Assembly (NCBI GenBank): GCA_963681965.1
Contig: OY820579.1
Coordinates: 2,256,835 to 2,320,834 of the forward strand
DNA from: a bacterium
Lineage (GTDB): Bacteria > Electryoneota > JAOADG01
Length of the DNA stretch: 64,000 bases
Direction: 5' to 3'
Part shown: piece after piece, positions 8,566 to 64,000 of the stretch
How positions within the stretch are numbered: position 1 is the stretch's first letter
Layout of the letters: every line of letters starts with the position of its first letter
Program-made: the position numbers and the translations under genes
Notes under the pieces: model-generated
What the model was told of the DNA's origin: nothing
What the model saw: the letters and a program-made list of their open reading frames with translations, nothing else
Databases searched by the model: none

Positions 8566-8588
8566 TGCAACATTAGCGAAACAGATCG

Positions 8589-10528: not shown

Positions 10529-10558
10529 GTGATGTTATTCGACAATGATGAGGTGATT

Positions 10559-24745: not shown

Positions 24746-25700
24746 TGTAGGTCAGAACTTGTTCTGACCACCTCTTGTGTCCAAAATTGATGCGGGCGGG
24801 CGCGGGGACCCGCCCTTACTGGAAAATTTGTACGATCGTATTGCTGTAGGTCAGAACTTGTTCTGACCACCTCTTGTGTCCAAAAATGATGCGGGCGGGC
24901 GCGGGGACCCGCCCCTATTGGAAAATTTGTACGATCTTATTGCTGTAGGTCAGAACTTGTTCTGACCACCTCTTGTGTCCAAAAATGATGCGGGCGGGCG
25001 CGGGCGCCCGCCCCTACTGGAAAATTTGTACGATCGTATTGCTGTAGGTCAGAACTTGTTCTGACCACCTCTTGTGTCCAAAATTGATGCGGGCGGGCGC
25101 GGGGACCCGTCCCTACTGGAAAATTTGTTCGATCTTATTGCTGTAGGTCAGAACTTGTTCTGACCACCTCTTGTGTCCAAAAATGATGCGGGCGGGCGCG
25201 GGGACCCGCCCCTACTGGAAAATTTGTACGATCATATTGCGGTAGGTCAGAACTTGTTCTGACCACCTCTTGTGTCCAAAAATGATGCGGGCGGGCGCGG
25301 GGACCCGCCCCTATTGGAAAATTTGTACGATCGTATTGCTGTAGGTCAGAACTTGTTCTGACCACCTCTTGTGTCCAAAAATGATGCGGGCGAGCGCGGG
25401 GACCCGCCCCTACTGGAAAATTTGTACGATCATATTGCGGTAGGTCAGAACTTGTTCTGACCACCTTTTGTGTCCAAAAATGATGCGGGCGGGCGCGGGG
25501 ACCCGCCCCTATTGGAAAATTTGTACGATCGTATTGCTGTAGGTCAGAACTTGTTCTGACCACCTCTTGTGTCCAAAAATGATGCGGGCGGGCGCGGGGA
25601 CCCGCCCCTATTGGAAAATTTGTACGATCGTATTGCTGTAGGTCAGAACTTGTTCTGACCACCTCTTGTGTCCAAAATTGATCGGGCGGGGCGGGGACAG
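24746..25700. repeat. Tandem array, ~10 copies of a 99-bp two-hairpin unit
   Basis: Unit gtaggtcagaacttgttctgacc...gatgcgggcgggcgcggggacccgcccctactggaaaatttgtacgatcgtattgct starts at 24746, 24846, 24945, 25044, 25143, 25242, 25341, 25440, 25539, 25638; only point differences between copies. Confidence 0.9.
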
Positions 25701-25828
25701 AGGATACAAGAAAGAAAAACACAGGCTGAAGCCTGCGGCTACGTTAGTCAAATACGCGGACATTAGTTCGCCGCTACGAAAAAACGGCACATCGGATGAT
25801 GTGCCGCTGAAAAATTCATCGGGAAGAA

Positions 25829-30600: not shown

Positions 30601-31391
30601 GGAATCAAGATCGTAGCGACATTATATCCTTCCATTTTCTTCAAATTGGTAAACGTGAGAAGTTGCGAATTATAAGACGCTGAGGAAGGACGCACGATCA
30701 CGTAAGTACCCGGTCGCCACAACAGGGATCGTCCCATCGAGAATGGGTTATAACCCAAAAACATCGTTTCATAGATCCCGTGATAGGATGGTGTGATCGG
30801 ACCGGTTAATGTCGGTCCTGCTACAGTCGCAGTCAACGTGATCGTTAGTTCGCTGATCGCTTCGATGGTGCCGTCGGATAGTTGGCGCAACGGATACACG
30901 GTCACCGGAACGACGCCGAAATCCTTGAAGACACCCGGTTCGCCGACAGTCACGCGCGGCATCTCGCTGGATTTCGCCAACGGGGTGTTGGGGAATTCCG
31001 GATCGCTGGCGATCGCAACTGCGCCGCCGAGTCGGTCCGTCGTGATATGTTCCGTACGTCCGGCAACGACACTGGCAGTCGCTTTCACCGCAAAATTGAA
31101 GGGGACGAATACGGTCACGCCGGAAATATCGGGGGTACCTAATTTCGGAAACGCTTCGTGTTGTCCACCAACGCGAAGAGCAACGCCGTTGGTCGCTTTC
31201 TCAACCGCGAAGCCATTCAACTTCACTGTGAAAGTGACCGTGGTTGCGCTGCGATTGAGTTGATCGACGTTGGGGGATGGGGTGCCGACTGCCGCGGATG
31301 ACGCTGCATCGGACAGCCAGACGGTTTGCACGGGAGCAGCAAATGCGCCGAGTGCAACGATTAACAGGATCGAAAGAAGTAACCTTCTCAT
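27678..31391 (-). CDS. Peptidase C25 (gingipain-like) family secreted protein with T9SS C-terminal sorting domain
   Basis: Signal peptide; C25-like core around YVAIIGDADRL and the later region with conserved His and Cys; C-terminal KVFDQTGREV...GVYYVMITADNFKTTRKVVFMK. Confidence 0.6.
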   Translation of the reverse strand: MRRLLLSILLIVALGAFAAPVQTVWLSDAASSAAVGTPSPNVDQLNRSATTVTFTVKLNGFAVEKATNGVALRVGGQHEAFPKLGTPDISGVTVFVPFNFAVKATASVVAGRTEHITTDRLGGAVAIASDPEFPNTPLAKSSEMPRVTVGEPGVFKDFGVVPVTVYPLRQLSDGTIEAISELTITLTATVAGPTLTGPITPSYHGIYETMFLGYNPFSMGRSLLWRPGTYVIVRPSSASYNSQLLTFTNLKKMEGYNVATILIPSGANGDQIKLLIADVYNSLAHTLPVEYVAIIGDADRLDNVPTFPFTVSAAETVPSDLNYVLLDGSDFWPEAFLGRISYGSTTGLATIVNKTQQHQNSPGTGNPANTNYMNKAFCFAGNYSDTGSPPITPTENTRWAAQMLRDFGYNVSTYLYPMQPAPGTDSILALINQGVSLITYRGWGDSQGPLYPRLQRGDLANVTRNDAVMLSIVCQNGRYAALNSQVDGNQCFGEAWVETGSPSVPKCGPAFFGAAHLHTSTRYNNPILAGLLHGWLNDGLNKLGPATLRGKLEVYQGFPNEMTAVEQYFRFYNILGDPSLTLWYKTPDTMQVTFPTTLNPASSSMTIRAVDQRTGNPLPNMVAALIVGNAGANPAVSLTDAQGYATLPLRIVANDTVRIAVRGGNYRPVINYIQTNNPLIGQFRVDSVFFNIPNTLPSPGVEGDINILIKNVGTTAAASQAILSQTNTRNRLVILNNSSNAGTVNAGATTSLTYRVKVVSLADRTPESLRLTFASGAVDFAMPVAWALPRISGIVVESGSLTPGVSRSTTIQVHLKSEGNAAIPACNYQFVTFSNGMNITTPAAYYMAIRDSGFVAFDAEIAQSILPGHIIPIRMLNWIIGGSDTLTTWFNITCGTRASTMPTGPDNYGYYAYEEIDVPSTGTWPTPTYNWIELDTALGGNGTSLILKDDTTYVQAIPFPFTFYGRTYNQFLSICSNGWVSFDSTWMYDFYNWTLPNSQGPRTLLAANWDDLKGSNPADSGRVRLFYRMDNTPGDRKYIIEWAEAYSRYGIETNPIRQKFEIILYGDRRGPSSDNIIDFQYHTSSDVDQTNNYTTMGIMNWEHTDGLDLLFAHVASPGAEELHNNHIIRFSTQTPDGFTGVDQPATQMLPKDYVVSEAYPNPFNPSMTMKLSVPKSGFVSAKVFDQTGREVAVLSQGNLDAGTYTLHWNASGNASGVYYVMITADNFKTTRKVVFMK

Positions 31392-32217
31392 CGGTGTTTC
31401 CTCCTCTTGGTGAACAGTCCCGGTATGAAACGAAAACTTCCGACAAAAAAACGCAAGCCGAAAATCAATCCGCTCAGTCGATCCGGGGGCAGCGGTTGCA
31501 CCTGTTTATGATCTCGCCACTGTAGCCGCGAAAGTTTCGAGAGAATCTCAATACTACAGTTACAATATGCATTCAAAGCCGGATAAAAGCAATATGCAAC
31601 AACGATTGCGAATGAAAATCAATCTTGATAACACATTTGCACACAACTTCCCAGAAGTGATTACTATTTATACAGATATTAGCTACTTACCGGAGGTAAA
31701 GGATGCTCTCTGCAGATGATCGGTTGATTTGTCGTTGCGAGGACTGCAGCGAAGGAACATGCGAAGCATTTCCGAAGCGGAAGGACGAAGCAATCTATCT
31801 TGAATCCTGTTTTCTCTAGTAGGGGTGGGTCCCCGCGCCCGCCCGTTCTTGTATCTTTATTTCTCTTTTCCCAATCCCCAATGCCTATTTCTCCATCACC
31901 CATTCTATGCGTCAGGCGCTGCCTGCCGCTTGGGGCGAATGCGATTCGCCCCTACGGAAAAAACGCGGACTAAAGTCCGCCGCTACCATGATGAATTGTC
32001 AGGCTGAAGCCTAACTTCCGATTTCAAGAGACAGATACACCGAACCTGCGATTCGCTTCCTTTCCGTAGGTCAGAACTTGTTCTGACCATTTCTTGTATT
32101 TTTTTTCTCTTTTCCCACCACCTACAACCCACTACCCACCACCCGTTTGGTTGATTTGTCGTTGCGAGGACTGCAGCGAAGGAACATGCGAAGCATTACC
32201 TCAGTTTCTTCCCGACG
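31392..32217. repeat. REP-like hairpin cluster
   Basis: Two copies of the ~70-nt cgttgcgagg element, gtaggggtgggtccccgcgcccgcccg, ccgtaggggcgaatcgcattcgcccc (reverse), gcggactaaagtccgccgctacc, gtaggtcagaacttgttctgacc. Confidence 0.75.
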
Positions 32218-33068: not shown

Positions 33069-33134
33069 GTGTTTCTTACACTCGTTCGAATTTCGTGGTG
33101 AAGTGCCGCAGGATCGGTGGTTCGTAGGTGGTCC
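33068..33134. repeat. Left direct repeat: diverged duplicate of the tnaA 3' end (putative att remnant)
   Basis: gtgtttcttacactcgttcgaatttcgtggtgaagtgccgcaggatcggtggttcgtaggtggtcc is ~92% identical to 36341-36405; on the minus strand it still encodes ...TYEPPILRHFTTKFERV-stop. Confidence 0.7.
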
Positions 33135-33201
33135 TTAAAAGCTAGTTCAACATTCGAACTTAGAATATCAATTAATTGATTGCTAGATAATCTGAATTGG
33201 A

Positions 33202-34011
33202 TTAAATGTAAGGATCGTCCAATTTGCAGTAACTAGCATCAAGAATATTGGCTTTACAACAATAATTCATTAACCAAGTTACATGTTCTTCATCGATGGG
33301 TGGGATATCCTTCTTGAACAAAACGGCTCGATCCAATCTTCCGATCCACTCTCGCGCTTTAGTTACTAATTGAACCTCGATGATACGCGATTCTTGGATC
33401 ATAATTAAAAAATGGATAGCACGATAATTAGTGTCGTGGGAGTACAATTTCGGATTGAAATAATAATTTCTGCATCGATAAATTTTTCGATAAAAGTCAC
33501 GCCATATTTTTACTCCTAATTGCGCAAGTTCGTTAGGAGTCTGGACGACTATTCGAAATCGAACCAAGTCCCAAATATCGTATAAATATTCAGGATAATA
33601 CCCTAACCGTTTTCGTTTCTCAATCGATTTTGCGATTGATTCATCTGATTTCAAGTTACCAAATAAATGTTCGAGCGGAACTTGCGATTTCTCGATATAA
33701 TCAAGTAACACGAGTCGGGAAAAGTCAAAGACTTTCTGTTTCTCATTTTTATCCATCACAAAATCAGACCAGTCAGCGATATTTTGACTAATTCGAAAGC
33801 CTGTTTCCGGGATAACTATTAACTTTCTAGATAATAGATCTACTGACTGATCGTGAAGCAATTGAAAATTGGGATCTGCTGAGTTTGTTCCATTCTCAAT
33901 TTTATTGCCTAACTCTAAAAATTCGGTTCGATCTTTGTCAGAAAGTGAGCACCAGAATTGTTTGAACCATTTGTCATGGCACTCGCAGTATTCGATATGT
34001 CTTTGTAACAT
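33202..34011 (-). CDS. RelA/SpoT-like (RSH/small alarmone synthetase-like) nucleotidyltransferase-fold protein
   Basis: Ordered motifs with RelQ-like spacing: SIAKSIEKRKR, DIWDLVRFRIVV, NYRAIHFLIMI, IEVQLVTKAREW...LFK. By-eye match, not HMM-verified. Confidence 0.5.
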   Translation of the reverse strand: MLQRHIEYCECHDKWFKQFWCSLSDKDRTEFLELGNKIENGTNSADPNFQLLHDQSVDLLSRKLIVIPETGFRISQNIADWSDFVMDKNEKQKVFDFSRLVLLDYIEKSQVPLEHLFGNLKSDESIAKSIEKRKRLGYYPEYLYDIWDLVRFRIVVQTPNELAQLGVKIWRDFYRKIYRCRNYYFNPKLYSHDTNYRAIHFLIMIQESRIIEVQLVTKAREWIGRLDRAVLFKKDIPPIDEEHVTWLMNYCCKANILDASYCKLDDPYI

Positions 34012-34031
34012 TGAGCACTCAAAATTATTAA

Positions 34032-34652
34032 TTACGAGAAATAGATATCATTCTTTGCAAATGTTGATCGAACAGAGTCCTTTCTCTCAACAACAGCAAT
34101 TTTTTTTCCTTTCTTATGAAGTAATAGAAATTCTTTGTTTACTAAATCTTTAATGCGATAATACATTTCACTCGGATTTTGAACTTTGTCAACTTGCCAT
34201 CTCTGAAAATTCGTAAATAAATCTTCAAGAGTGATCTGATCTAATGAATACTCGTATATAAATTCAATTATCTTTTTCTGAGTAAAAGATAATTTTCTAT
34301 AAGAATCCACTAATTTCAGTTCTTGATCTGCAACACTAGGAGCACTCTCGATGGGTATTTTAGATACTGATGTAACAGAATAAAGCGAATATTCGTTAGG
34401 TTTTTGTTTTAAATTAGATTTATGTGAAAGATATGTGAACAAAATCACGAAAAATAATCCAATTAATAATTCAAACACACCTATAAATACTATTAACCCA
34501 TTTGGGTGAGCACGATAAATTATATTATTTGTTTGATTATGCCATTCGAAAATTCCTAATAAAATCATAACTGTTCCACCAAGAACAAATATTGCATCGA
34601 TTCTTGCCTTAAAAAGACTTTTTAAAAGTTCGAACATAATGATCCCTTTCAA
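34032..34652 (-). CDS. Membrane protein: two N-terminal TM helices plus ~110-aa C-terminal winged-helix-like domain (paralog 1)
   Basis: Shares with the next gene the pattern ELLK..KA..D.I.VL.G..M.LLGIFEW..Q.NNII.R.HP and a C-terminal block ...YYRIKDL...G..IAV.E. Confidence 0.55.
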   Translation of the reverse strand: MKGIIMFELLKSLFKARIDAIFVLGGTVMILLGIFEWHNQTNNIIYRAHPNGLIVFIGVFELLIGLFFVILFTYLSHKSNLKQKPNEYSLYSVTSVSKIPIESAPSVADQELKLVDSYRKLSFTQKKIIEFIYEYSLDQITLEDLFTNFQRWQVDKVQNPSEMYYRIKDLVNKEFLLLHKKGKKIAVVERKDSVRSTFAKNDIYFS

Positions 34653-34703
34653 AATAATAAATTAGAGATTAATCGCTTTAAATTGAAATGAATTACCGGT
34701 TAA

Positions 34704-35249
34704 TTAAGAGCACAATATATTCTTTTTTTCCAAAGTTAACTGAACAAAACCAATTTTCTCAATGACAGCTATATTTCTTCCAATATTATGAAGATTAATG
34801 AAACCATTATATTTTAGATCTTTAATTCTATAATAAAATTCGTTTTTGTTTTGAATAATTCCAGGTCTCCAGGCTTGAAAACCATCGAAAAGCACTTCGA
34901 GAGAAATTTCATTTAATAAATGTTGGTAAATAAATTGTACAATCAGCATTTGTGTTAATGTTAAATTGTGATAAGATAAGACTAACTGTTCTTCATAGTC
35001 TCGTTTAGGACTTGCCATCTCCGAATGAACTCTCTGTTGAATATAGAAATTAATAATATAGAGTGAAATACCAATTAATGTTAACAGAATCCCAATAAAA
35101 ATGACAAAACTATGAGGATGTGTTCGAATAATAATGTTATTTAATTGACCATTCCATTCAAAAATACCAAGCAGCAACATCGAAGAACCAACAAGCACTA
35201 AGATGACATCAACTTTTGCTTTAAGAACGCCTTTAAGTAGTTCTAGCAT
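34704..35249 (-). CDS. Membrane protein: two N-terminal TM helices plus C-terminal winged-helix-like domain (paralog 2)
   Basis: Paralog of 34032-34652; start overlaps the stop of the upstream NTase gene (35243-35249). Confidence 0.55.
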   Translation of the reverse strand: MLELLKGVLKAKVDVILVLVGSSMLLLGIFEWNGQLNNIIIRTHPHSFVIFIGILLTLIGISLYIINFYIQQRVHSEMASPKRDYEEQLVLSYHNLTLTQMLIVQFIYQHLLNEISLEVLFDGFQAWRPGIIQNKNEFYYRIKDLKYNGFINLHNIGRNIAVIEKIGFVQLTLEKKNILCS

Positions 35250-36130
35250 GATAAAGCTCGTCTTGGAAGAGAAATATGATTTTTTTCGATAAGTACAATT
35301 TGAGTACTAAATTTTATCTTTACTCTTATAGCGCAATCGGCTGAAAAGCAATTTGGGTGGTTGCCCTTAGTCGACTCAAATAAAAGAATATTTTCTTTCA
35401 TATGAATTGGAAGCGATGATTGTAATGGCATTTGATAATAATTTTGGACGTACTCCTTCATACAACAAAAATAAAAATAGTATGCTGTGGCTTGTTGAAT
35501 CGGTAGAGTGCTGACTTGCAGTGAATCAATAATTTTGTGTTCTTTTAACCACCAATCACATAAAACAAGAAACTCGTAATCAACCAATCCCCCAGCACCG
35601 CTTTTAAAATCCCAATAATGTGGCGATTTTGGGTCGTCGTATTCATCGCTGCGATGTGGGTTTCCGAGGAAGAATCTGTGCAAATTATCGAATGAAGTAT
35701 TTTTCAACCAATACTTGAATTTACTAATAAATTCTTGGTAGATCGACTGGTTTCCTGCAAGAAATCGAAGGTGAGGAAAAGAGACAAGTAATGGAAAAGA
35801 GTAGGTGTCGATTGCTTTATCGAGAGAATTAATGATGAAATGCGTTGGATGATTTGGTGTGTATCGTTTAAGTAGCGATTTTATCAAATCGCGATCAATG
35901 TTTGGTGATCGATAAAGAACGAAGAAATCAATATCGGAAAACTGATTTGGATGACCGCGAGCGTAGCTTCCCCTTAAACAGATAGCAAAAGTTTGATTAT
36001 TCAAAAATGAAGAAATATGCTCTTCGGAAAGATAGGCGTGAAGTTGTTCAACTCGTTTTAAGAATTTCTCTTGATATGTCAGCGATAATTTTAAGAATGT
36101 TGTCGGGTTGTTTGTGATAAACATAAACAA
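35243..36130 (-). CDS. Nucleotidyltransferase with Pol-beta-type motif and GlnD/GlnE-like second motif
   Basis: GSYARGHPNQFSDIDFFVL (GS-x10-DxD) and ~120 aa later DFKSGAGGLVDYEF, resembling the GlnD/GlnE uridylyl/adenylyl-transferase signature. Confidence 0.55.
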   Translation of the reverse strand: MFMFITNNPTTFLKLSLTYQEKFLKRVEQLHAYLSEEHISSFLNNQTFAICLRGSYARGHPNQFSDIDFFVLYRSPNIDRDLIKSLLKRYTPNHPTHFIINSLDKAIDTYSFPLLVSFPHLRFLAGNQSIYQEFISKFKYWLKNTSFDNLHRFFLGNPHRSDEYDDPKSPHYWDFKSGAGGLVDYEFLVLCDWWLKEHKIIDSLQVSTLPIQQATAYYFYFCCMKEYVQNYYQMPLQSSLPIHMKENILLFESTKGNHPNCFSADCAIRVKIKFSTQIVLIEKNHISLPRRALSC

Positions 36131-36300
36131 TACCTATGCAAACTTCATTCGATCACAGTAGTAAAAAAATCCATAAATAGTTTCTTCATGAGGCAATTAG
36201 TATTCTTGTAAAGATAATAATAAACTAAACAAATTCAAAATGGTATTTGGTAAAATATAAACAATCAACTTACATGTTGACGAGATATCTAAAAAATAAT

Positions 36301-36320
36301 TCCGGTAAAACTATACCGGA
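36301..36320 (-). terminator. Candidate terminator for tnaA lying inside the island
   Basis: Hairpin ccggtaaaactataccgg immediately 3' of the tnaA stop, followed on the minus strand by a T-rich run. Confidence 0.4.
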
Positions 36321-36338
36321 ATTATCAATTAAGTTAAA

Positions 36339-36405
36339 TTGTGTTTCTTACACCCGTTCGAATTTTGTGGTGAAGTGCCGCAGGATCGGCGGTTCGTAAG
36401 TGATC
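36339..36405. repeat. Right direct repeat: functional 3' end of tnaA
   Basis: gtgtttcttacacccgttcgaattttgtggtgaagtgccgcaggatcggcggttcgtaagtgatcc; encodes ...ITYEPPILRHFTTKFERV-stop in frame with tnaA. Confidence 0.7.
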
Positions 36406-40263: not shown

Positions 40264-41532
40264 TTATTTCACGACTACGATGCGGTAGAGGTTCCCGTGT
40301 CGGACGATCGAAACCCGGAATGGGAGTTTCTGCCACTGCTTAAGCGCATTAGTCAGATCGCTGAGTTCGCCGGAAGCTTCCGATCCGTCGATCGTCAATT
40401 TCTCCGCAGTCGGGATCGCAAACGATTCGTCCGCTTTATAGCTTAAGAACGGTAGATAGAGGGTAAATCGATCCGTCGGTGCATCGTATTTTCCGTTCAG
40501 CGAATCGACCTTACCGCCTTGCATCTTCCAAGCAGCTTTCATCGCCTCGGTTGGATCGTGGTCGGCAATGATTTGAACCATCGCTTCGCCCGACGAGATC
40601 GAGACTAACTCCAGTTTTCCACCCGATTCGGCAATTTGAAGGATCTTTGCAATCAATCCGCCGGGGCTGTCCGAAGTTTCTACCGGTGTTATGTGAGTGA
40701 CGGTATCGGGTATCGAGGTTGCAGCACTTCCCTTCGCACTATCCGTCAGCGGTACTGTATGTGGTACGGCTTTCGGTCGATTGTGGTAGCGATTGCTGTA
40801 AATCATCGCAACTGCACTCAAAATTGCGACAATGGCGGTGATTATGATGACCCGTTTGATCAGGCGGGCACTCTTCGAAAAGTCGAAATTGTGCTGGACC
40901 GGTTCTTCGGTAATGGTCTCTTCCGGAGGAGTAGATCCGGGCTTTTCCGAAAGAGTGTATACCGGTTTTTCGGGAACTCCGGGGAATTGATGCGCCGTCG
41001 GTTGCGTGACCGATAGCGATTTGAAATCGAATGACAACACTTCGCTGATTGGTTGATCGGGCAGTGCAAACCGGATTGCCGAAAGATTGTATCCGTGTTC
41101 CAGCAGGACGCCTTTCCAGAACGCCACTACCGCCGGACGCATCAGTGCGACATCGTGCATGCCGTCGCCGCGATCGCGATAGAGATAGAGATAATAGTCG
41201 AGATCGGTTTGCAGTTGTTTCGATAGTTCCCACGTGATTTGTCGGGGAATTTCCTCTTCCGGCAACGACGGTGTCGGTATTTTCGTCGCCATTCCCCAGG
41301 ATGGCGGTAACCACACTTCGAGATCGGTCGAAGCGGGTGTCGCAGTCGTGAAGATGGTCGAGAGATAAGTTTTGAGTGCCTGAGTTGCAATCTCGGATTT
41401 GGTGATGATTGCTTCCAGCGGGAATGAGGCTTCGGTGGCTGCCGTTTCGACGAATTCGAGGGTCTGTTCCTCACCCTGCAATTCGCCTAATACAAATTCG
41501 TTTTCCCGGACCCAGAGCACGGCAGTATTCAT
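40264..41532 (-). CDS. Hypothetical protein with one central TM segment
   Basis: 422-aa ORF, TM helix ...RVIIITAIVAILSAVAMIY...; no motif recognised. Confidence 0.45.
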   Translation of the reverse strand: MNTAVLWVRENEFVLGELQGEEQTLEFVETAATEASFPLEAIITKSEIATQALKTYLSTIFTTATPASTDLEVWLPPSWGMATKIPTPSLPEEEIPRQITWELSKQLQTDLDYYLYLYRDRGDGMHDVALMRPAVVAFWKGVLLEHGYNLSAIRFALPDQPISEVLSFDFKSLSVTQPTAHQFPGVPEKPVYTLSEKPGSTPPEETITEEPVQHNFDFSKSARLIKRVIIITAIVAILSAVAMIYSNRYHNRPKAVPHTVPLTDSAKGSAATSIPDTVTHITPVETSDSPGGLIAKILQIAESGGKLELVSISSGEAMVQIIADHDPTEAMKAAWKMQGGKVDSLNGKYDAPTDRFTLYLPFLSYKADESFAIPTAEKLTIDGSEASGELSDLTNALKQWQKLPFRVSIVRHGNLYRIVVVK

Positions 41533-41903
41533 TTTGCTCCTCCGGGTTGGGTTGTTGCAATCTTCAAGTACGGGGCGATCCGTTCCCAGTTGCTAGGACC
41601 GATACCGCGCACCCGATCGACGAAATCGGCTGCCGAGTGAAACGGCGTGCGAGTACGTTCGCTAACGATGCGTGCTGCCATTTTCGGTCCAATTCCCGGT
41701 ACCAGTTGTAACATTTCCGGCGACGCCAGATTCGGGTCGAGCGGAAAACGAATGGTTGTATCGGTTAATAATATAATGCTTGAATCGGAGCTATTCGCCC
41801 TTTTTTCAACCGGTTTCGATTTTTCGAACCAAGCTTTCGGAAAACACGCGAATAGGAGCACGATTGTAATAATCAGGATGACACTCCGTTCATAGGGTGT
41901 CAT
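41529..41903 (-). CDS. ComEA-like helix-hairpin-helix DNA-binding protein
   Basis: N-terminal TM anchor plus LQLVPGIGPKMAARIV...FVDRVRGIGPSNWERI tandem HhH motifs; start set to MTPYERSV. Confidence 0.6.
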   Translation of the reverse strand: MTPYERSVILIITIVLLFACFPKAWFEKSKPVEKRANSSDSSIILLTDTTIRFPLDPNLASPEMLQLVPGIGPKMAARIVSERTRTPFHSAADFVDRVRGIGPSNWERIAPYLKIATTQPGGAK

Positions 41904-43438: not shown

Positions 43439-44194
43439 TCAAGTTACCGGTTTTCGGTGTTGACGGTACGCAAGCCATAAAAGTAGTACGGTTATCCAAG
43501 GGAACCTTAATATTTCCAATAAGATCCAAATAATAATCCGGAGCGGGACCACTTTCATGATCAACGAAGACTCCCAGCGCCAGACACCTTCGACAAAATC
43601 ACCATCGAATGCCAAATCAAGTCGCTGCGGTTTTAATGGAAGTATTGCACAACCAATACCATAAAGAAAACCAATTTGAGCAGGATCCTCGCCTCCGAAT
43701 TGTATCCGGCAGCGGCACTCCTCGCAACTGGGTACTTTCAGCAGTCGACCGATCATCCGCAGGAATTGCTTTAGGATTTTTACAAATCGTTTCTGTTCTT
43801 CGACGATTAGTGCAAACCATGCGACTTCCGGTTCGGATTTGTCCGCGTTTTTTTTCTTCTGATCGGTGGATGGCGTCAGTTCATCTGATCCACCCGGTTG
43901 ATTTGGTTCCGATGGCGATGATTTTTTCTTGCCGAAACTGAAATTGATGTGAATACCCGTCGATTCCGGTTCCGGTTCGGATGGGGTGGTGATTGCTTTT
44001 CCATCGGATTCTACAGCCTTTGCTGGTTCAGTCGATTTTTTCGCGGGGAAGCTGCTGCGTGATTTGAACCAGAGCCATTGCAGTTCGAAGTAACCGGTTT
44101 TGTCGAGCAGAAAGAATCGAAAGCGCACCGGGAACGCCAAGATGATCGCGAGTACGATCACAATTCCCAGTAGAATTTCGAGGAGGAGCATCAT
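43439..44194 (-). CDS. Hypothetical membrane protein (possibly DUF2953-like)
   Basis: Start set to MMLLLEILLGIVIVLAIILAF after the tadA stop; low-complexity S/E/P/K-rich middle; family assignment tentative. Confidence 0.4.
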   Translation of the reverse strand: MMLLLEILLGIVIVLAIILAFPVRFRFFLLDKTGYFELQWLWFKSRSSFPAKKSTEPAKAVESDGKAITTPSEPEPESTGIHINFSFGKKKSSPSEPNQPGGSDELTPSTDQKKKNADKSEPEVAWFALIVEEQKRFVKILKQFLRMIGRLLKVPSCEECRCRIQFGGEDPAQIGFLYGIGCAILPLKPQRLDLAFDGDFVEGVWRWESSLIMKVVPLRIIIWILLEILRFPWITVLLLWLAYRQHRKPVT

Positions 44195-44700
44195 TCGAGT
44201 AGATCGTTTCCATTGTGAAGCGGTTTGGTGGCACCGGGAAGGCGTTTGCTGCGGAAAAAATTCTGCAACATTTCGGCACAGGCACCTTCGCGAATGCCGC
44301 CAATGACGGTGACTTTCCGCCCGAGCCTGCCGTCTTCGAGGAGATTGTAGAGACTGCCACAGGCACCCAGTTTCGGATCGGATGCACCAAATACGATCCG
44401 GTCGATATGGGCAAGCAGAATCGCGCCAGCGCACATCGGGCACGGTTCGAGAGTAGTATACAATGTACATCCCTCGAGCAACGGTTCGCCGAGCGCTTCG
44501 GCGGCGGCGGTGATCGCAATCATTTCGGCGTGCGCGGTCGGATCGCAGCCGGCGATGATCCGATTATAACCCGTTCCGAGCAGCCGTTCGCCGCGCATCA
44601 CGACGGCACCGACCGGCACTTCGTCGGCATCGAGGGCATATTGCGCCTGACGGAGGGCGCGCTCCATTCCGCGATCCAGTTCATTCATGTTGTGCAACAA
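44191..44700 (-). CDS. tadA: tRNA-specific adenosine deaminase
   Basis: Zinc-binding deaminase motifs HAEMIA and PCPMCAGA; 169 aa. Confidence 0.85.
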   Translation of the reverse strand: MLHNMNELDRGMERALRQAQYALDADEVPVGAVVMRGERLLGTGYNRIIAGCDPTAHAEMIAITAAAEALGEPLLEGCTLYTTLEPCPMCAGAILLAHIDRIVFGASDPKLGACGSLYNLLEDGRLGRKVTVIGGIREGACAEMLQNFFRSKRLPGATKPLHNGNDLLE

Positions 44701-46030
44701 CCCAATTCATTCATAGCGAGAATATAATCCGATGCAATCCGTTTTGGTAGCGGCGGAGTAAAAGAGGCCGTTTTTTTTTTGCGTAGGGGCGTATGGCATA
44801 CGCCCGAAGCGGCAGGCAGCGCCTGACGCCGAGTATGTCTCCTGATATGTAAACAAGAGGAGTCGGAATAAATTCCGACCTACCGAAAAGAAGATGCACG
44901 CAGGTTTGGAGGTCTGCATCACCAACAGGATGGGAGTTGGGGGTTAGGAGTTGGGAATTTGGGGAAAAGATCGGTAGCGGCGGACTTTAGTCCGCTCTAA
45001 GTTCTGCTTTCTTTGTAGCCGCAGGCTTCATCCTGCGTTCTTGTATCTTTTTTGATCCTGTATCCTGCAGTGGGGTGACCCTCCGCGAACGCCCGCTCTT
45101 GTATCTTTTTTACCCCAATACCCACAACCTACCACCCACCACCCATTTTTCGTAGGGGCGTATGGCATACGCCCGAAGCGGCAGGCAGTGCCTGACGCCG
45201 AGTATGTATCCTGATATGTGAACAAGAGGAGTCGGAATAAATTCCGACCTACGGAAAAGAAGATACTCGCAGGCTCGGAGGCCTGCGCCACCAAAGACAA
45301 GACACAGGAGGTGGTCAGAACAAGTTCTGACCTACGGAAAAGAAGATGCACGCAGGTTTGGAGGTCTGCGCCACCATCAGGATGGGAGTTGGGGGTTAGG
45401 AGTTGGGAATTTGGGGAAAAGAGGGGTAGCGGCGGACTTTAGTCCGCTCTAAGTTCTGCTTTCTTTGTAGCCGCAGACTTCAGCCTGCGTTTTTTTTCTG
45501 ATTATGACACAAGAGGAGTCGGAATAAATTCCGACCTACGGAAAAGAAGATACTCGCAGGCTCGGATGTATGCACCACCAACAGGATGGGAGTTGGGGGT
45601 TAGGAGTTGGGAATTTGGGGAAAAGAGGGGTAGCGGCGGACTTTAGTCCGCTCTAAGTTCTGCTTTCTTTGTAGCCGCAGGCTTCAGCCTGCTTTTTTTT
45701 TCTGATTATGACACAAGAGGAGTCGGAATAAATTCCGACATACTTCCTGACACAGGAGGTGGTCAGAACAAGTTCTGACCTACGGAAAAGAAGATGCACG
45801 CAGGCTCGGAGGCCTGCGCCGCCAAAGACAAGACACAGGAGGTGGTCAGAACAAGTTCTGACCTACCGCAACACGATCCTCCTATCACCCAATCTTTTTA
45901 GTAGGGGCGGACCCCCGTGTCCGCCCGCTCTCTTTTTTTTTATTCCCCAACGCCCACAACCTACCATCCACCACCCATCTTGTAGCCCCCGCTGGCGGGG
46001 GTTGGGGGTGGTCGCGCCGGTAGGCGCGTG
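44701..46030. repeat. Large BIME-like mosaic of REP hairpins with partly duplicated 200-300-bp blocks
   Basis: Repeated gtcggaataaattccgac, gtaggtcagaacaagttctgacc, gtagcggcggactttagtccgc, gtagccgcaggcttcagcctgcg, gtaggggcgtatggcatacgccc and G-rich gatgggagttgggggttaggagttggg tracts. Confidence 0.8.
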
Positions 46031-46079
46031 AGCGAAGCAAAAAAAACTCGCAATCAAGTTTTTCTTTAGAATCTTCTTT

Positions 46080-46220
46080 TTAGGACTCTAGAGTCCACTA
46101 AAAACTCTGGACTCGGAATCTTCTGTATCTTTCCTCGTTACCTCTAAAGATTCTTTATTTAGCTCGCAGTATGACTCTAGAGTAAAGACTCTAAAGAAGA
46201 CTCTAGAGATAAAGACTCGG
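46080..46220. other. AT-rich region with iterated gactctagag-type repeats (iteron-like)
   Basis: ggactctagagtcc palindrome, then a run of gactcta(g/a)ag units ~13-15 bp apart; unlike the GC-rich REP families. Confidence 0.4.
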
Positions 46221-46467
46221 TTGATATTTTCATGTTGTTGTGAATACATCGGTTAGACGCGTTTTCTGAGTGATAAATTGGCATCATCGGTGGATAACTC
46301 CGATAATTCAATATAAATAATACACTTATCTAGAATTGTAATGTAAATGCTTCCGAGAGTCCGATTCCGGTTAGGATAATGTGGAGATTTTCGAATTTAT
46401 ATGTTTTGAATAATTAATGGATGCTTAAAATTGTATCGAATTTATTTTGCCGAAACAAAAATAACTC

Positions 46468-46498
46468 TTGACTTTTGCCTAAAAATGTATTATATTAT
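46468..46498 (+). promoter_or_regulatory. Candidate sigma70-like promoter upstream of the OB-fold gene
   Basis: cttgact (-35-like), ~17-bp spacer, tattat (-10-like); by eye only. Confidence 0.3.
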
Positions 46499-46697
46499 AT
46501 ACAAGATGGGGAATAGGTGTTGGGTGATGGGGAGTGGGGAAAAGAAAAAAAACGATTAAAACTTCCATTGGCACTGTGCATTCACATCATCAAACATCAC
46601 CAACCATCCAACTCCGACGCTTACTGCTGCGATCTCTGACCAACAAAGACTCTTTTATAAAAAATCTCACCGTATCTTCCGCGAAAGGAATCCAACC

Positions 46698-47054
46698 ATG
46701 TCCGATATCAATGAATGGTGGCTGCAAGGGCGTATCGGCGCCATTTCACCGCTTATCCCCGATCGCAAAACCAGCTTCTGCAAAGTCACCCTCGTTACCT
46801 CCACCCGCATCGATCACCGCCAGAAAGACATCGAAGACTGGCATGAAATCATCATGGGTCATGATGTCGCGGAACAATTCCTTTCCGAAGCTGCTGTCGG
46901 GAAAAAAATACGCTGTAAGGGATATCTTCTTCGGCGTCGAATCAGACCTAAAAACTCCAACATATCTCCAGAGTCACAAATGATTGCGACTTGGTATTCT
47001 ATCGACTGTGTGAAAAGGTTCAACGAGGCAAATCATATCAGATTCGTTGCCTAA
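46698..47054 (+). CDS. Small OB-fold, SSB-like protein (putative)
   Basis: 118 aa; weak resemblance to SSB/PriB-type OB folds (...DWHEIIMGHDVAEQFL...GKKIRCKGYL). Confidence 0.3.
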   Translation: MSDINEWWLQGRIGAISPLIPDRKTSFCKVTLVTSTRIDHRQKDIEDWHEIIMGHDVAEQFLSEAAVGKKIRCKGYLLRRRIRPKNSNISPESQMIATWYSIDCVKRFNEANHIRFVA

Positions 47055-59071: not shown

Positions 59072-59830
59072 TTCATGATATGAAGTAGTAGGGGCGGTTC
59101 TCTGCGACCGCCCTTTTTTTATTTCGTAGGGGCGAACCACGAAGTGCTTGCCGAAGGCAAACGATAAAAAGATACAAGATCGGGGGCATGCGGGGATGCC
59201 CCCCTACTAAAAAAGAAAGAGTCGGAATAAATTCCGACTCACGGAAAAGATGGGTGATGGGGGATAGGTGTCGGGTGATGGGAAAAGATAAAAACAGATA
59301 CAAGAACGGGCGGTTCTCTGCGACCGCCATTTTTTTTATTTCGTAGGGGCGAACCACGAAGTGCTCGCCGAAGGCAACCGATAAAAAGATACAAGATCGG
59401 GGGCATGCGGGGATGCCCCCCTACTAAAAAAGAAAGAGTCGGAATAAATTCCGCCCCACGGAAAAGATGGGTGATGGGGGATAGGTGTCGGGTGATGGGA
59501 AAAGATAATAACAGATACAAGAACGGGCGGTTCTCTGCGACCGCCATTTTTTTTATTTCGTAGGGGCGAACCACGAAGTGCTCACCGAAGGCAAACGATA
59601 AAAAGATACAAGATCGGGGGCATGCGGGGATGCCCCCCTACTAAAAAAGAAAGAGTCGGAATAAATTCCGACCCACGGAAAAGATGGGTGATGGGGGATA
59701 GGTGTCGGGTGATGGGAAAAGATAAAAACAGATACAAGATCGGGCGGTTCGCGAACCGCCCCTACTAAAAAAATGAGTCGGAATAAATTCCGCCCCACGG
59801 AAAAGAAGATACTCGCCTCTGTGTGGTGCT
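59072..59830. repeat. BIME-like array: ~3 tandem copies of a ~216-bp unit
   Basis: gtaggggcggttctctgcgaccgcc at ~59088, 59308, 59524, each followed by gggggcatgcggggatgcccccctac, gtcggaataaattccgac and a gatgggtgatgggggataggtgtcgggtgatggg tract. Confidence 0.85.
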
Positions 59831-60037
59831 GTTATCGGTGACTTACTAATACTATCTATCTTACCGTCGTCAATATCGATGAAATAAAAACTTACCTGTA
59901 TTTTACCGGTTTATTCGAAATAATTGCCCCTAGTTAGGGTAATTGAACCTCCGACTTTTTTATAAAACGGATCATTTTGATTGCTGGTTATTCAATTCCG
60001 GTACATATTACCGCTAATCAGACTTGTCGGAGCTTCT

Positions 60038-62191
60038 ATGAACCCCTCGTTCACTCGCAATTGGTTTGTCATTATCCTGCTTTCCCTTTCCTTTTTTACT
60101 CTCTCATTTGCACAATCGTGGATTTGGCAGAATCCGCTACCAAGCGGCAATTGTCTGCATACGGTGAAGTTCTTTGCTTCCGGTCAGGGTTGGGTTGCCG
60201 GATTGTACGGCACGATCGCTCATACCACCGATGGCGGTTTGACTTGGACCATGCAAACGAGCGGAACCAGCCAAGGACTCAACTATCTGACCATGGTGAA
60301 TGAACGCCACGGTTGGATTGTCGGTGACTCGATTCTGTTGCATACCGCCGATGGTGGCAATCATTGGGAAACAGTCACAGTCGCACCCGGATTTACAGCG
60401 AAATCGGTCGCCTTTGCCGACAGCAGTTTCGGCTGGGTGGTGGGTAACAGCGGACAAATCTACTGCACTGCCGATGGTGGTTCGACCTGGAGTCTTCAAA
60501 CCAGCAATAGTACCGCGCAACTCTATTTTGTAAGATGTATCGATCGCTCGCACTGTTGGATCGCCGGCGGTACGGCACTACTTCGCACGGTAAATGGTGG
60601 TGAGACGTGGACAACAACAACCGGCACCCGCACCCCGAGTCGATTCACATTCCTGAATGCCGATACCGGTTGGGGCGTTGGCGCGGAAAATGAGGGTGGT
60701 TATATCTGTCTGCGCACCGTCAATGGCGGTGTTTCCTGGACGACCAACAACGGTGGTTGGTTTGCGCTCGCGAGTATCGATTTCACCGATGCGCACAACG
60801 GGTGGGTAGTCGGTGAAGCCGGTATCATCCATCATTCCACCGACGGTGGTCAATCCTGGCAGAGTCAGTCGAGTGGTGTTACGAACGGTGTCGGATTAAC
60901 CGATGTCAGTTTTGTCGATTCATTGCACGGCTGGGCAACCGGTCACTATGGAATTTTGTTGCACACTATCGATGGCGGAGCGACCTGGGGACCGATGGTT
61001 CCCAGTTTTACCGGTACACTGAACGATGTCTGTTTTGTCGATTCCAGTAACGGTTGGGCGGTCGGAACCAACAACTCAGGCACTGCGCAATGTGCAATTC
61101 TGCATACCGCGAATGGCGGCACCAGTTGGGAGCGACAGACCGGCGGCGGCACCATGACTGGAAAAGGGGTTGCATTCATCAATCCCGATACCGGATGGGT
61201 GGTCGGTGATCACGGCGTCTATAAAACAATCAACGGCGGCGGCGATTGGGTACTTCAGACCGATCTTCAGGCGCTCAACTACAACCACATTTTCTTTTTG
61301 AATGAGCGCCATGGCTGGATGGTGGGACTGAATGGTCGGATCATGCATACCAGCGACGGTGGTGCCTCATGGTTTCTCCAGACCAATAATTATACCGGGA
61401 GTATCGATCGGATTGAATTCGCCGATTCGGTCAATGGCTGGCTGGCAGGATATGACAGCGGGAGCCGGAATTATTATTTGTATCATACCACGACTGGAGG
61501 TACTAATTGGTCGCTGCAGCATACCGGTACCGGATTCGCCGTATACGATTTTGCGGTGATCAGTCCGAGTGAGTGTTGGGTTGCCGGCGGTTCGGTCAAT
61601 ACGACGCCGCAGCATCCATTGTTGTTACACACGCTCGATGGCGGTGCGAATTGGAACGATGTGTCACCCAATGTTTCTTACGAATTGCATGGCTTGGTCT
61701 GGTTCGACAGCAACCACGGCACGATCTGCGGCAGTAACGGCATGATCCTGACGACTACCGACGGTGGAACAATGTGGTCGAGAACTGTCGTGACAAATCA
61801 GAGCTTTACCACCATTTGCGCGACCGATCGCAATCATTCTTGGGTTGTTGGATTGAGCGGTACGATTCTCTTTTCCGGTCGCACGTCGATGTCGGATGTG
61901 ACGGAACCGGTGACCAGCAAATTGCCAAAGGAATTTGTGCTGCATCCGAATTACCCTAATCCATTTAATAGCTCGACGACGATTTCGTATTCATTGCCGA
62001 TTTCGGGAAATGTCGACTTGAAGATTTTCGATCTGCAGGGGCGGGAAGTCCAGTCGGTATATTCGGGATCTACCCATGCGGGAAGTTATCGTGCCAGTTT
62101 CGATGGGAAGGGGTTGGCATCGGGGACGTATTTTGTCCGGTTGCAGATGGGTGAGGCGGTTCGGATTCAGAAAATTGTTTTATTAAAGTAG
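60038..62191 (+). CDS. BNR/Ycf48-like repeat protein with T9SS C-terminal sorting domain
   Basis: Signal peptide; many TxDGGxxW / TxNGGxxW repeats; C-terminal YPNPFNSSTTISYSLP...GTYFVRLQ...QKIVLLK. Confidence 0.7.
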   Translation: MNPSFTRNWFVIILLSLSFFTLSFAQSWIWQNPLPSGNCLHTVKFFASGQGWVAGLYGTIAHTTDGGLTWTMQTSGTSQGLNYLTMVNERHGWIVGDSILLHTADGGNHWETVTVAPGFTAKSVAFADSSFGWVVGNSGQIYCTADGGSTWSLQTSNSTAQLYFVRCIDRSHCWIAGGTALLRTVNGGETWTTTTGTRTPSRFTFLNADTGWGVGAENEGGYICLRTVNGGVSWTTNNGGWFALASIDFTDAHNGWVVGEAGIIHHSTDGGQSWQSQSSGVTNGVGLTDVSFVDSLHGWATGHYGILLHTIDGGATWGPMVPSFTGTLNDVCFVDSSNGWAVGTNNSGTAQCAILHTANGGTSWERQTGGGTMTGKGVAFINPDTGWVVGDHGVYKTINGGGDWVLQTDLQALNYNHIFFLNERHGWMVGLNGRIMHTSDGGASWFLQTNNYTGSIDRIEFADSVNGWLAGYDSGSRNYYLYHTTTGGTNWSLQHTGTGFAVYDFAVISPSECWVAGGSVNTTPQHPLLLHTLDGGANWNDVSPNVSYELHGLVWFDSNHGTICGSNGMILTTTDGGTMWSRTVVTNQSFTTICATDRNHSWVVGLSGTILFSGRTSMSDVTEPVTSKLPKEFVLHPNYPNPFNSSTTISYSLPISGNVDLKIFDLQGREVQSVYSGSTHAGSYRASFDGKGLASGTYFVRLQMGEAVRIQKIVLLK

Positions 62192-62300
62192 GCGCGACCC
62201 TCCGCGGTCGCCCGCATCTTTTTTGGACACAAGAGGAGTCGGAATAAATTCCGACCTACGGAAAAGATGGGTGATGGGTTGTAGATGACGGGATTAGTAG
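62192..62300. repeat. REP-like hairpins
   Basis: ggcgcgaccctccgcggtcgccc, gtcggaataaattccgac, gatgggtgatgggttgtagatgacggg. Confidence 0.7.
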
Positions 62301-62327: not shown

Positions 62328-63734
62328 ATGAACACAGGCAACAGCAGTTACTTTCGAAACATAGTGACGATTGTGGGTATTCTTGTTTTTGCGACAATCG
62401 GCTTTGCGCAATCGACGTATATTCACACCATACCCCACAATGATTTTTCCGAATGTTCCGATGTGGTTGAAACACCGGACGGCGGCTACTTCTTGCTCTG
62501 CATCATGCAGAATGGAATTGAGAACAATCTGATTTTGCACCGGATCAATTCAGATGGTGAATTGGTATCGACCCACAATTACGGAATCACCGCAGTTGGA
62601 GAATTGTACCGGCAGCGGATTATCTCCGCGAATGATGGGAATTATCTCATAGCCTCGACCTATCGTGGTGAGAGTGGTTGGCTGTTGAAAATCGATTCCT
62701 CGGGGGATACGCTTTGGACCTATCGACCAACTGACAACAACTGGAGCTTTAGCGATCTCTATCAGACGTCCGATGGATCCATTTATATCGTCGGTGGCGG
62801 AAACGGGCGACTGCAACTGCTCAAATTCAGTGCCGCCGGTACACAGCTTTGGTTCCAGACTTATCCCGGAATCAGTCACGGCGGAGGTAGTATTATTCCA
62901 GCAGTCGACAGCGGTTTTGTCATTTCCTCGTGTGTCGAGACTTCCAACTATTACGACATTAGTGTCAAGAAGGTCGATACGGCGGGAATCCAGCAATGGA
63001 CAACGATCTTTGGCGATGGAAACGATCAGATCCCAACTTTTATCAAATCCGATGCGGGGTATGTGGTTGGCGGGTATAATGGTGGCGAATCGTGGAGCGG
63101 CGATAATTTTCGACTGCGTTTAAATTCCGCCGGGGATACTGTATCCTGCCAGCATTGGCAAAATTCGTTTTATCCGGCTTGCACTACACCGCTAAGCGAC
63201 GGCGGTTATATCTATGGCGTTTCCGGTACCGGATCGTTTGGACTAAGTAAATTCGGAGCCAATCAGAATATTCTTTGGGAACGAACCTTTTCGATCGGTA
63301 CCAACAATTATTATTTTCCGCAATTCATCGAAGAGGCATCCGATCATAGTTTGATCGTCACCGGTGTGGTGGTGTATCCCGGTGGAGATCGACACGATAT
63401 ACTGATTGCCCGGACCGACTCGCTCGGTTTGATCGGACAGGCTGTTGTTGGCAAAGACATTTCACTTCCGGTTTCGGTTGCGATGCTGTCAAGTTATCCC
63501 AATCCATTCAATAATGTGACCACAATTTCGTATTCGCTGCCGTCATCCGGGAATGTCGAACTCAAGATTCTCGATCTGCAGGGGCGGGAAGTGCAGTTGG
63601 TATATTCGGGATCTACGCATGCGGGAAGTTATCGTGCCCGTTTCGATGGGAAAGGATTGGCATCGGGAACGTATTTTGTCCGGTTGCAGATTGGTGAGGC
63701 GGTTCGGATGCAGAAAATTGTTCTGTTAAAGTAG
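62328..63734 (+). CDS. Secreted protein (possible beta-propeller) with T9SS C-terminal sorting domain
   Basis: Signal peptide; C-terminal YPNPFNNVTTISYSLPSSGNVELKILDLQGREV...GTYFVRLQIGEAVRMQKIVLLK, nearly identical to the CTD of 60038-62191. Confidence 0.6.
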   Translation: MNTGNSSYFRNIVTIVGILVFATIGFAQSTYIHTIPHNDFSECSDVVETPDGGYFLLCIMQNGIENNLILHRINSDGELVSTHNYGITAVGELYRQRIISANDGNYLIASTYRGESGWLLKIDSSGDTLWTYRPTDNNWSFSDLYQTSDGSIYIVGGGNGRLQLLKFSAAGTQLWFQTYPGISHGGGSIIPAVDSGFVISSCVETSNYYDISVKKVDTAGIQQWTTIFGDGNDQIPTFIKSDAGYVVGGYNGGESWSGDNFRLRLNSAGDTVSCQHWQNSFYPACTTPLSDGGYIYGVSGTGSFGLSKFGANQNILWERTFSIGTNNYYFPQFIEEASDHSLIVTGVVVYPGGDRHDILIARTDSLGLIGQAVVGKDISLPVSVAMLSSYPNPFNNVTTISYSLPSSGNVELKILDLQGREVQLVYSGSTHAGSYRARFDGKGLASGTYFVRLQIGEAVRMQKIVLLK

Positions 63735-64000
63735 GGACGAACTTCAGCGGTCACCCGCTCTTACTAATAAAGAAGGAGTCGGAATAAATTCCGACCTACG
63801 GAAAAGATGGGTGATGGGGGGTAGGTGTTGGGTGGTGGGAGAAGATAAAAAAGACACAAGAACGGGGGCATGCGGGGATGCCCCCCTACTAAAAAACAGG
63901 ATGCAAGATAAATAAAGATGTAAGAATGGGTGAATGCGTTGGAATGCCTGTACCCCTTCTTTTCACCATGAACTATGCACCAGCAACCAAGCACCCATTT
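63735..64000. repeat. REP-like hairpin cluster
   Basis: gtcggaataaattccgac, gatgggtgatggggggtaggtgttgggtggtggg, gggggcatgcggggatgcccccctac. Confidence 0.7.

Follow-up and report, generated by a model that had tools for sequence, protein, structure and literature searches.

Partial gene conversion between dispersed paralogues is familiar from the tufA/tufB and pilE/pilS pairs, and clustered short repeats are familiar from plasmid centromeres of the parC type, such as R1 parC with its 11-bp repeats. Among the single-stranded DNA-binding proteins (SSBs), SsbB (YwpH) of Bacillus subtilis is a competence-specific, tail-less paralogue (PMC3384303; PDB 3vdy), and among repetitive extragenic palindromic (REP) elements the GTAG-tagged kind is marked by a GTAG/CTAC head, a GC-rich palindrome of 20-40 bp and a high copy number (PMC3733652). 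Here, we set these systems beside a locus in a 64-kb stretch of bacterial DNA (the window, meaning the whole of that stretch), which is part of a 4,339,467-bp contig (ENA ERZ21878129 contig_1) at around 0.70-0.76 Mb. The locus is a 2-kb gap between divergent genes, with tadA, a REP array, an AT-rich block, a promoter, a leader of ~200 nt and an open reading frame (ORF) for an SSB-like protein of 118 aa (ORF118) following one another in that order. We put at roughly 0.5 the probability that positions 46050-46700 are a private 5' control region of the SSB-like gene and not a replicon element, with an array of GACTC units for a regulator, a tract shared with a second locus through conversion or duplication, and co-regulation of the two genes so headed.

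The regulatory reading starts from a motif block at 46059-46220, in which the clustering of the repeat is highly non-random. GACTCTARAG, with at most one mismatch, has 8 matches in the 64 kb as against 3.1 expected, and 7 of the 8 fall within 46064-46208. The block contains a perfect 14-bp palindrome, GGACTCTAGAGTCC, at 46083-46096, degenerate units at 46062-46076, 46108-46120 and 46141-46155, some of them reversed in orientation, and four head-to-tail units (GACTCTAGAG at 46173, GACTCTAAAG at 46187, GACTCTAGAG again at 46199 and GACTCgg at 46213). The first-pass annotation had seen a run of gactcta(g/a)ag-type units every ~13-15 bp; the run is real, and its start-to-start spacing is somewhat tighter, at 14, 12 and 14 bp. 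The core common to all unit variants is GANTC, which even the degenerate units GAATC and GATTC keep, and the 10 GANTC sites in 46069-46218 form the densest 200-nt interval of the whole sequence. While the unit cores are conserved, the spacers between them vary (TAAA, AA, ATAAA). Since the units form separated sub-clusters in both orientations, simple slippage is an inadequate account of them. Together, the palindromic cores, these sub-clusters and the better conservation of cores than of spacers lead us to favour an array bound by a regulator. More specifically, the 160-bp block, 250-400 bp upstream of the promoter, would offer several binding sites to a dimeric DNA-binding regulator and would act as a distal operator or an upstream activating site.

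The motif is no common dispersed repeat: in the 84 kb of genome read, GACTCTARAG is found solely in the two copies of the block, and its positional conservation can be assessed against one paralogous copy only. A scan of genome contigs (a collection that does not hold the source genome) with a 2-unit motif returned 47 matches in unrelated taxa, about the level estimated for chance, and a few perfect microsatellites besides. The 3-unit motif, scanned against metagenome contigs and IMG/VR, hit nothing but coding repeats of the DSKE type and perfect microsatellites with units of 12 or 15 nt, none of which resembled the locus or adjoined an SSB-like gene.

The region downstream of the motif block has the features expected of an ordinary promoter region, at greater length. 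The GC content is 0.32 over 46050-46499 and 0.30 over 46221-46499, as against 0.49 for the window, the non-coding spacer proper (GC 0.30) spanning 46221-46467. At its right end, on the plus strand, lies a predicted sigma-70-type promoter (46468-46496) preceded by A/T-rich DNA, with TTGACT at 46468-46473, 17 nt and TATATT at 46491-46496, which together match 10 of 12 consensus positions. A TTGACT-N17-TATTAT-like promoter had been proposed at first sight; it is present, although TATTAT itself is offset by 2-3 nt and the -10 element is TATATT. Transcription from this strong predicted promoter would start near 46503 and yield an mRNA with a ~200-nt leader (46500-46697, plus strand) made of REP-array spacer remnants. 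The leader opens with a G-rich REP-array spacer module (46500-46551) that has G-quadruplex potential, followed by a C/A-rich segment at 46584-46615 and a Shine-Dalgarno-like AAAGGAA at about -13, and ORF118 (46698-47054, plus strand) begins at the first possible start codon. Comparable sites of the TTGACT/TATATTAT type lie upstream of other genes in the window, where a REP-free, AT-rich stretch of 90-250 nt separates the REP array from the start codon; here that stretch is ~450 nt. The initial description of the region as lacking REP hairpins, unlike all other intergenic DNA of the window, thus captures a difference of length and not of kind: the REP-free AT-rich block is unusual in its length and its repeats. 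Nor is it fully REP-free at its margins, since the leader starts with a REP spacer module and, on the left, the edge at 46070-46120 resembles the REP module CTTTTTAGGACacaAGAGGAGTCGGAAT of 50644-50680. As a whole, though, the AT-rich block does not belong to the GTAG-REP class or of the bacterial interspersed mosaic elements (BIMEs). The palindrome, the iterated units, the AT-rich tract, the promoter and the 118-aa frame, in sum, are all where the first-pass annotation had put them or close by.

A second copy of the region places it in the company of a second gene. Window positions 44777-46790 are colinear, at 95-100% identity by blastn and MAFFT, with positions 8322-10110 of a second locus (L002) at ~1.78 Mb of the record, ~1 Mb away. 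The shared tract covers the REP array, the AT-rich block, the promoter (identical in the two copies), the leader and codons 1-30 of the gene for the SSB-like protein, and in the second copy it heads the gene of P0002, the sole other member of the ORF118 family. The copies differ by insertions or deletions of REP modules at ~45255-45299 and ~45490-45695 and by two patches of divergence in the AT-rich spacer, one at 46225-46289, where 40-nt blocks are about 68-80% identical, and the other at 46373-46392. Both edges of the tract are sharp. On the left, homology begins exactly at a REP GTAG head (44777), and the flanks beyond 44780 are unrelated (32-35% identity). On the right, identity falls abruptly after ~46787-46790, that is, at codon 30, to 40-55%, with ~45% identity of nucleotides and ~30% of amino acids in what follows. 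Within the first 30 codons there are 3 nucleotide differences, one of them synonymous, and 28 of 29 residues are identical; because the synonymous positions of these codons are conserved too, the similarity points to recent common ancestry and not to selection on the protein. The abrupt loss of identity at codon 30, together with a left boundary that falls on a REP head, argues for gene conversion or segmental duplication between the paralogues, in which dispersed REP arrays would have supplied homology on the left and the coding sequences of the paralogues would have done so on the right. REP arrays plausibly act as portable homology for conversion. The two loci have only the 5' cassette in common: after P0002 comes an inverted REP array (L002 10350-10930), and after ORF118 the REP-free 150-nt promoter region of the next gene. 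As both tail-less SSB paralogues share the promoter and the sites upstream of it, they should be co-regulated.

The product of the gene is, on the evidence of profiles and modelling, best described as a very divergent, tail-less oligonucleotide/oligosaccharide-binding (OB) fold of the SSB family; an SSB-like protein had been supposed from the sequence at the outset. Its only homologue among 5.8 billion protein clusters is P0002, a protein of 114 aa encoded on the same contig (E ~ 1e-28); two protein searches both recover this pair alone, and protein-pattern scans of IMG/VR and of metagenome contigs found no relatives of ORF118. Against the Pfam SSB profile (PF00436), ORF118 scores 17.4 bits (E = 0.0046), below the cutoff of 26, whereas P0002 passes with 36.7 bits (E = 4.7e-9). 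As P0002 both passes and matches ORF118, the latter is an SSB-family member by transitive homology only. A two-sequence profile retrieved SSBs only from the PDB, and HMMER, run exhaustively over 1.84 billion representative proteins, recovered only 39 proteins at E < 1e-3 (best 5.6e-8), of which the nearest relatives checked were PF00436 proteins in 10 of 10 cases. With the 2-sequence alignment, AlphaFold2 gave too poor a model (pLDDT 47); the one used here derives from a 28-sequence alignment (pLDDT 85.3) and shows the OB topology b1-b2-b3-alpha-b4-b5 (strands 7-16, 26-37 and 44-54, helix 55-64, strands 70-79 and 93-102), with the caveat that the input alignment was itself made up of SSBs. The best 50 Foldseek matches to this model are all SSB, SsbB or PriB (E down to 4e-8, TM-score 0.63-0.76). 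Aligned with the E. coli SSB sequence, both proteins retain the contact residues W54 and H55 and both have lost W40, while F60 is retained in P0002 only and W88 is replaced by Y in P0002 and by I in ORF118. ORF118 thus keeps one of the four classic aromatic contacts to single-stranded DNA, and P0002 has aromatic residues at three. The acidic tip of the DDDIPF type is absent from both (ORF118 ends in NHIRFVA and P0002 in PPRAAA), while most of the nearest relatives end in DD-IPF. The third-codon-position GC content (GC3) is 0.49 in the variable part of ORF118, as against 0.62-0.68 for its neighbours and P0002. PADLOC found no defence-system match, and PHROG gave a generic SSB assignment only.

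Several points weigh against the regulator-array account. For a candidate operator, the motif block is unusually distant from the -35 element, at 250-400 bp. Its 99% identity between the copies carries no information, since the adjoining REP DNA matches equally well. None of the collections searched contained an orthologous locus in which purifying selection on the motif could have shown itself. Further, ORF118 itself may be decaying, given that it has lost three of the four aromatic contacts and has an atypical GC3. The main rival is a neutral explanation, which we regard as a genuine though lesser possibility: the GACTC units would be a slippage mini-repeat mixed with decayed REP fragments in an ordinary AT-rich spacer upstream of a promoter, with no binding function, so that only the promoter and the leader would matter and the account of duplication or conversion would stand unaltered. 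Tandem Repeats Finder counts just 2.1 copies of a 12-nt unit (AAGACTCTAAAG), the left edge of the block is like a REP-module flank (CTTTTTAGGAC...GAGTCGGAAT), and the genome is prolific in repeats, with 17% of the window given over to them; the lack of cross-species conservation and the microsatellite or coding nature of the 3-unit matches elsewhere fit this too. Neutral slippage fits poorly with units that stand at three or four separate places in both orientations, one of them a perfect palindrome, with cores that are better kept than their spacers, and with a REP-free stretch 2-5 times as long as that at other promoters in the window. The same GANTC sites could alternatively serve an epigenetic switch, with an adenine methyltransferase of the CcrM/HinfI type and a methylation-sensitive regulator, by analogy with the GATC clusters of pap and agn43 and the GANTC sites of Caulobacter promoters. 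The density of 10 sites in 150 nt and the retention of GANTC by the degenerate units would suit such a switch, and GANTC is not depleted across the window (310 observed, 250-345 expected). Yet 6 of the 10 sites are accounted for by the repeated GACTC unit, the window holds no GANTC methyltransferase, and the host is a bacterium of the Fibrobacteres-Chlorobi-Bacteroidetes (FCB) group with proteins of the type IX secretion system (T9SS) and not an alphaproteobacterium, and we consider the switch quite improbable. Of similarly low probability is a more elaborate proposal in which the SSB-like pair are dedicated partners of the GTAG-REP and G-rich arrays, coating the G-rich strand or the REP hairpins during single-stranded DNA processing of the kind performed by REP-associated tyrosine transposases (RAYTs) or during transcription, with a shared GACTC/GANTC switch, kept identical by gene conversion, turning both on. 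The pointers to it are circumstantial: a family confined to a REP-rich genome, a REP spacer at the start of the leader, and the shared cassette. Invertible promoters (invertons) are common in the FCB group, and the geometry here is inverton-like: an inverted repeat with a perfect inner 11 nt (CCCATCTTGTA at 45974-45984, TACAAGATGGG at 46500-46510), set in 52-nt arms that are 73% complementary, brackets a 515-nt AT-rich segment (45985-46499) that closes on the right with the promoter, set 4 nt inside the arm on that side, and this is the sole C-rich...G-rich module pair of the window to flank an AT-rich segment. Flipping by a trans-acting recombinase, of the kind seen in Bacteroidota, would still be very improbable, for the arms are ordinary REP-spacer module ends found everywhere, only the 11 nt are perfect and 8 of these 11 belong to the normal module terminus, no recombinase gene lies within 10 kb of either copy, and the segment has the same orientation in both.

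The remaining alternatives would make the region part of a replicon, as the first-pass annotation had suggested in likening it to an origin or a partition site and possibly a relic of a plasmid or phage, or would make it an RNA. For a relic of a plasmid, phage or integrative and conjugative element, in which the repeats were once iterons of an origin, a parC/parS-like centromere or an oriT beside the element's ssb, one may cite how often mobile elements carry an ssb gene that is divergent or tail-less close to par or oriT regions (for example, the SsbB of the gonococcal genetic island; PMC3334931), the AT-richness of the block relative to the genome together with the atypical GC3 of ORF118, and a match of P0002 to the phage SSB family phrog_44, though that family is simply SSB. 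We nonetheless hold a relic improbable. By Pfam matches, genes for relaxases, integrases and the rep and par functions are absent from the whole window and from the DNA within 10 kb of the second copy, and both copies have housekeeping flanks. The 661-nt query has no similarity in 72,556 plasmids and only two chance AT-rich matches of 45 nt in 50,697 phage records, and ORF118 has no protein relative in IMG/VR. No dif/Xer site was found. The single-stranded DNA fold of the motif block (z = -1.3) is no better than that of shuffled sequences, and therefore speaks against a single-strand promoter of the Frpo or ssi type; the want of a PADLOC match also counts against a relic. An iteron origin was rejected as such, since the units are 10-12 bp long at 12-14-bp spacing with inverted copies and not direct repeats of 17-22 bp, and a partition centromere (parS/parC) was rejected since parA/parB and parM/parR are absent within 10 kb of either copy. 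A chromosomal origin (oriC), with an AT-rich unwinding region and DnaA boxes at a divergent switch of gene strand, has three things to commend it: the genes diverge from the gap (minus strand at 19.7-44.7 kb, plus strand at 46.7-64 kb), the cumulative GC skew has its minimum within the window at ~41-49 kb, and three or four 9-mers like DnaA boxes occur at 46239-46503, among them the weak words at 46239, 46289 and 46405 in the spacer. It is nonetheless the least probable of all the readings weighed here and was rejected. Just one box, TTATCCACC at 46289-46297, lies within one mismatch of TTATCCACA, the others fitting only the looser TTATNCACA, and words like TTATNCACA are fewer in the window than in shuffled sequences (36 vs 46). 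After gene-strand effects are separated, the plus-strand GC skew in the 64 kb + 20 kb of genome examined stays above zero both to the left (+0.019) and to the right (+0.033) of the site, with no switch of polarity; neither the window nor the DNA within 10 kb of the second copy contains dnaA or dnaN; and the block recurs, 94-100% identical, 1 Mb away within a co-directional run of genes, with no strand switch. A small non-coding RNA or a structured cis-acting RNA (riboswitch or attenuator) in the AT-rich block or the leader could draw on the length of the leader, a site at 46278-46307 that weakly resembles a promoter, a minus-strand motif like a terminator (46208-46189) and a sub-threshold Rfam match to AgvB (E = 0.27). 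We rate it highly improbable: no Rfam family reaches its gathering score, the matches at E up to 5 being sub-threshold and due to chance; besides the motif block, the leader (z = +1.4) and the AT-rich spacer (z = 0.0) fold in no special way; none of the 64 pairs in the two-copy consensus fold shows a compensatory change; and the weak internal promoter has not kept its -35 in the second copy. Small ORFs are not conserved either, a 53-aa minus-strand frame in the AT-rich block being frameshifted in the second copy. A regulatory site, which the first-pass annotation had also entertained, remains the most plausible of its readings.

The wider neighbourhood is dominated by the same class of repeats as flanks the block. 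The left neighbour of the gap, tadA, lies on the minus strand at 44191-44688, and between it and the AT-rich block the array at 44777-46049 consists of GTAG/CTAC-headed GC-rich hairpin modules (such as cGTAGGGGCGTATGGCATACGCCC, GTAGCGGCGGACTTTAGTCCGC and GTCGGAATAAATTCCGACCTAC) with G-rich or C-rich spacers; the tetranucleotide head, the GC-rich palindrome and the high copy number identify it as GTAG-tagged REP/BIME. Such modules are dispersed over ~11 kb, which is the 17% of the window already mentioned, in arrays of up to 1.4 kb. The REP-like stretches are at 902-1589, 2691-2938, 3460-3899, 4833-5018, 10050-10427, 12298-12552, 15372-15881, 19422-19681, 24330-25777, 31722-32197, 44767-45978, 50425-51342, 53671-54675, 56854-57706, 59092-59816, 61940-62284 and 63494-63913. 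The REP load is unusually high, and at 1-10 kb several of the arrays separate genes within the operon for complex I (nuo). At 50425-51342, upstream of the gene for a 736-aa BNR/T9SS protein, a composite REP unit of ~321 nt is present three times in tandem (matching points 50654, 50975 and 51296). Inside the arrays are telomere-like G-rich spacer modules (for example, GGGAGTTGGGGGTTAGGAGTTGGGAATTTGGGG) with G-quadruplex potential, at 44926-44974, 45378-45436, 46501-46546, 50694-50745 and 57399-57441, among others. Their G-rich strand mostly tracks local transcription, the plus strand being C-rich at 10-32 kb and G-rich at 45-64 kb. An ORF on the minus strand at 25135-25722, wholly inside a REP array, matches the Pfam family Cas_CXXC_CXXC at E = 1.5e-13 with no stretch passing alone, and is most likely an artefact of translated repeats and not a cas gene.

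Other features of the window bear on the host. A Por_Secre_tail domain, which serves T9SS sorting, forms the C-terminal end of six proteins (genes at 10529-12295, 27678-31391, 51433-53643, 57761-59071, 59981-62191 and 62328-63734), including a gingipain-like peptidase of the C25 family and paralogous BNR/YCF48-like proteins; the T9SS C-terminal sorting domains and the gingipain-like peptidase are the basis on which we place the host in the FCB group. An island of low GC content at 33100-36400 (0.28-0.35 vs 0.49) holds four or five ORFs on the minus strand, including those for a RelA/SpoT-like and an NTP_transf_2 nucleotidyltransferase protein, and is probably a horizontally acquired island of the toxin-antitoxin or defence type. 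A ComEA-like HHH_3 protein of 124 aa is encoded at 41529-41903 on the minus strand, 5 kb from the tail-less SSB-like gene; it suggests a possible link to competence, of which no evidence was found.

The region is hence an object of an ordinary kind, a gene-specific upstream region that heads an accessory SSB paralogue, with two mildly unusual aspects. One is that the SSB-like proteins form an orphan pair with no other relatives among the protein clusters searched; the other is that a 2-kb cassette is near-identical at two loci while the coding regions behind it have diverged to ~30%. More generally, repeats, AT-rich DNA and an ssb gene here combine to give the look of an origin or a mobile-element relic while most likely marking the upstream region of a single gene, which advises caution in calling origins from local sequence. 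Should the GACTC array truly be an operator, the accessory SSBs of an uncultured FCB-group lineage would have a small regulon of their own.

Turning to the described systems, the flanking arrays are like the GTAG-tagged REP/BIME arrays (PMC3733652; PMC2817692) in their GTAG/CTAC heads, GC-rich palindromes and high copy number, and unlike them in that a RAYT gene is absent from the 64-kb window. The shared tract recalls partial gene conversion as seen in tufA/tufB and pilE/pilS in having a sharp breakpoint inside the coding sequence and near-identical DNA 5' of it. It differs in being mostly non-coding, a 2-kb regulatory cassette plus 30 codons, and in the left-hand homology that REP sequences would have furnished. 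The motif block, like iteron origins and parC, has short direct repeats clustered in AT-rich DNA upstream of a promoter; unlike them, its spacing is irregular at 12-14 bp, inverted copies are mixed in, Rep, ParR and ParM are not adjacent, and the block occurs twice in the chromosome between housekeeping genes. A divergent extra SSB gene is a trait shared with the gonococcal genetic island, whose SsbB belongs to ssb-parA-parB clusters (PMC3334931), whereas here neither copy has parA, parB, topB, a type IV secretion system or an integrase nearby, there is no dif-like flank, and there is no similarity to plasmids or phages.

The protein finds its nearest parallels in two small relatives of SSB. 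With PriB of beta- and gamma-proteobacteria (1woc, 3fhw, 4apv), it shares a small (~100 aa), tail-less, SSB-derived OB fold with degenerate aromatics (TM-score 0.63-0.64). PriB, however, is encoded within the operon rpsF-priB-rpsR, whereas ORF118 is a monocistronic gene preceded by 2 kb of intergenic DNA in an FCB-group host, and its model fits true SSBs better. With B. subtilis SsbB it has in common a length of ~113-118 aa, a single SSB OB domain without the acidic C-terminal tail, coexistence with other SSB-family genes and a dedicated, here predicted, promoter of its own, and the model superposes on SsbB (3vdy) with a TM-score of 0.71-0.73. Where SsbB is 63% identical to the DNA-binding domain of SsbA, ORF118 is ~16-25% identical to any solved SSB and below the Pfam threshold, keeps a single one of the four aromatic contacts, and has no recognisable ComK or cin-box. 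Thus, by resemblance and not by family assignment, the closest functional analogues of ORF118 would be tail-less accessory SSBs such as B. subtilis SsbB, or PriB.

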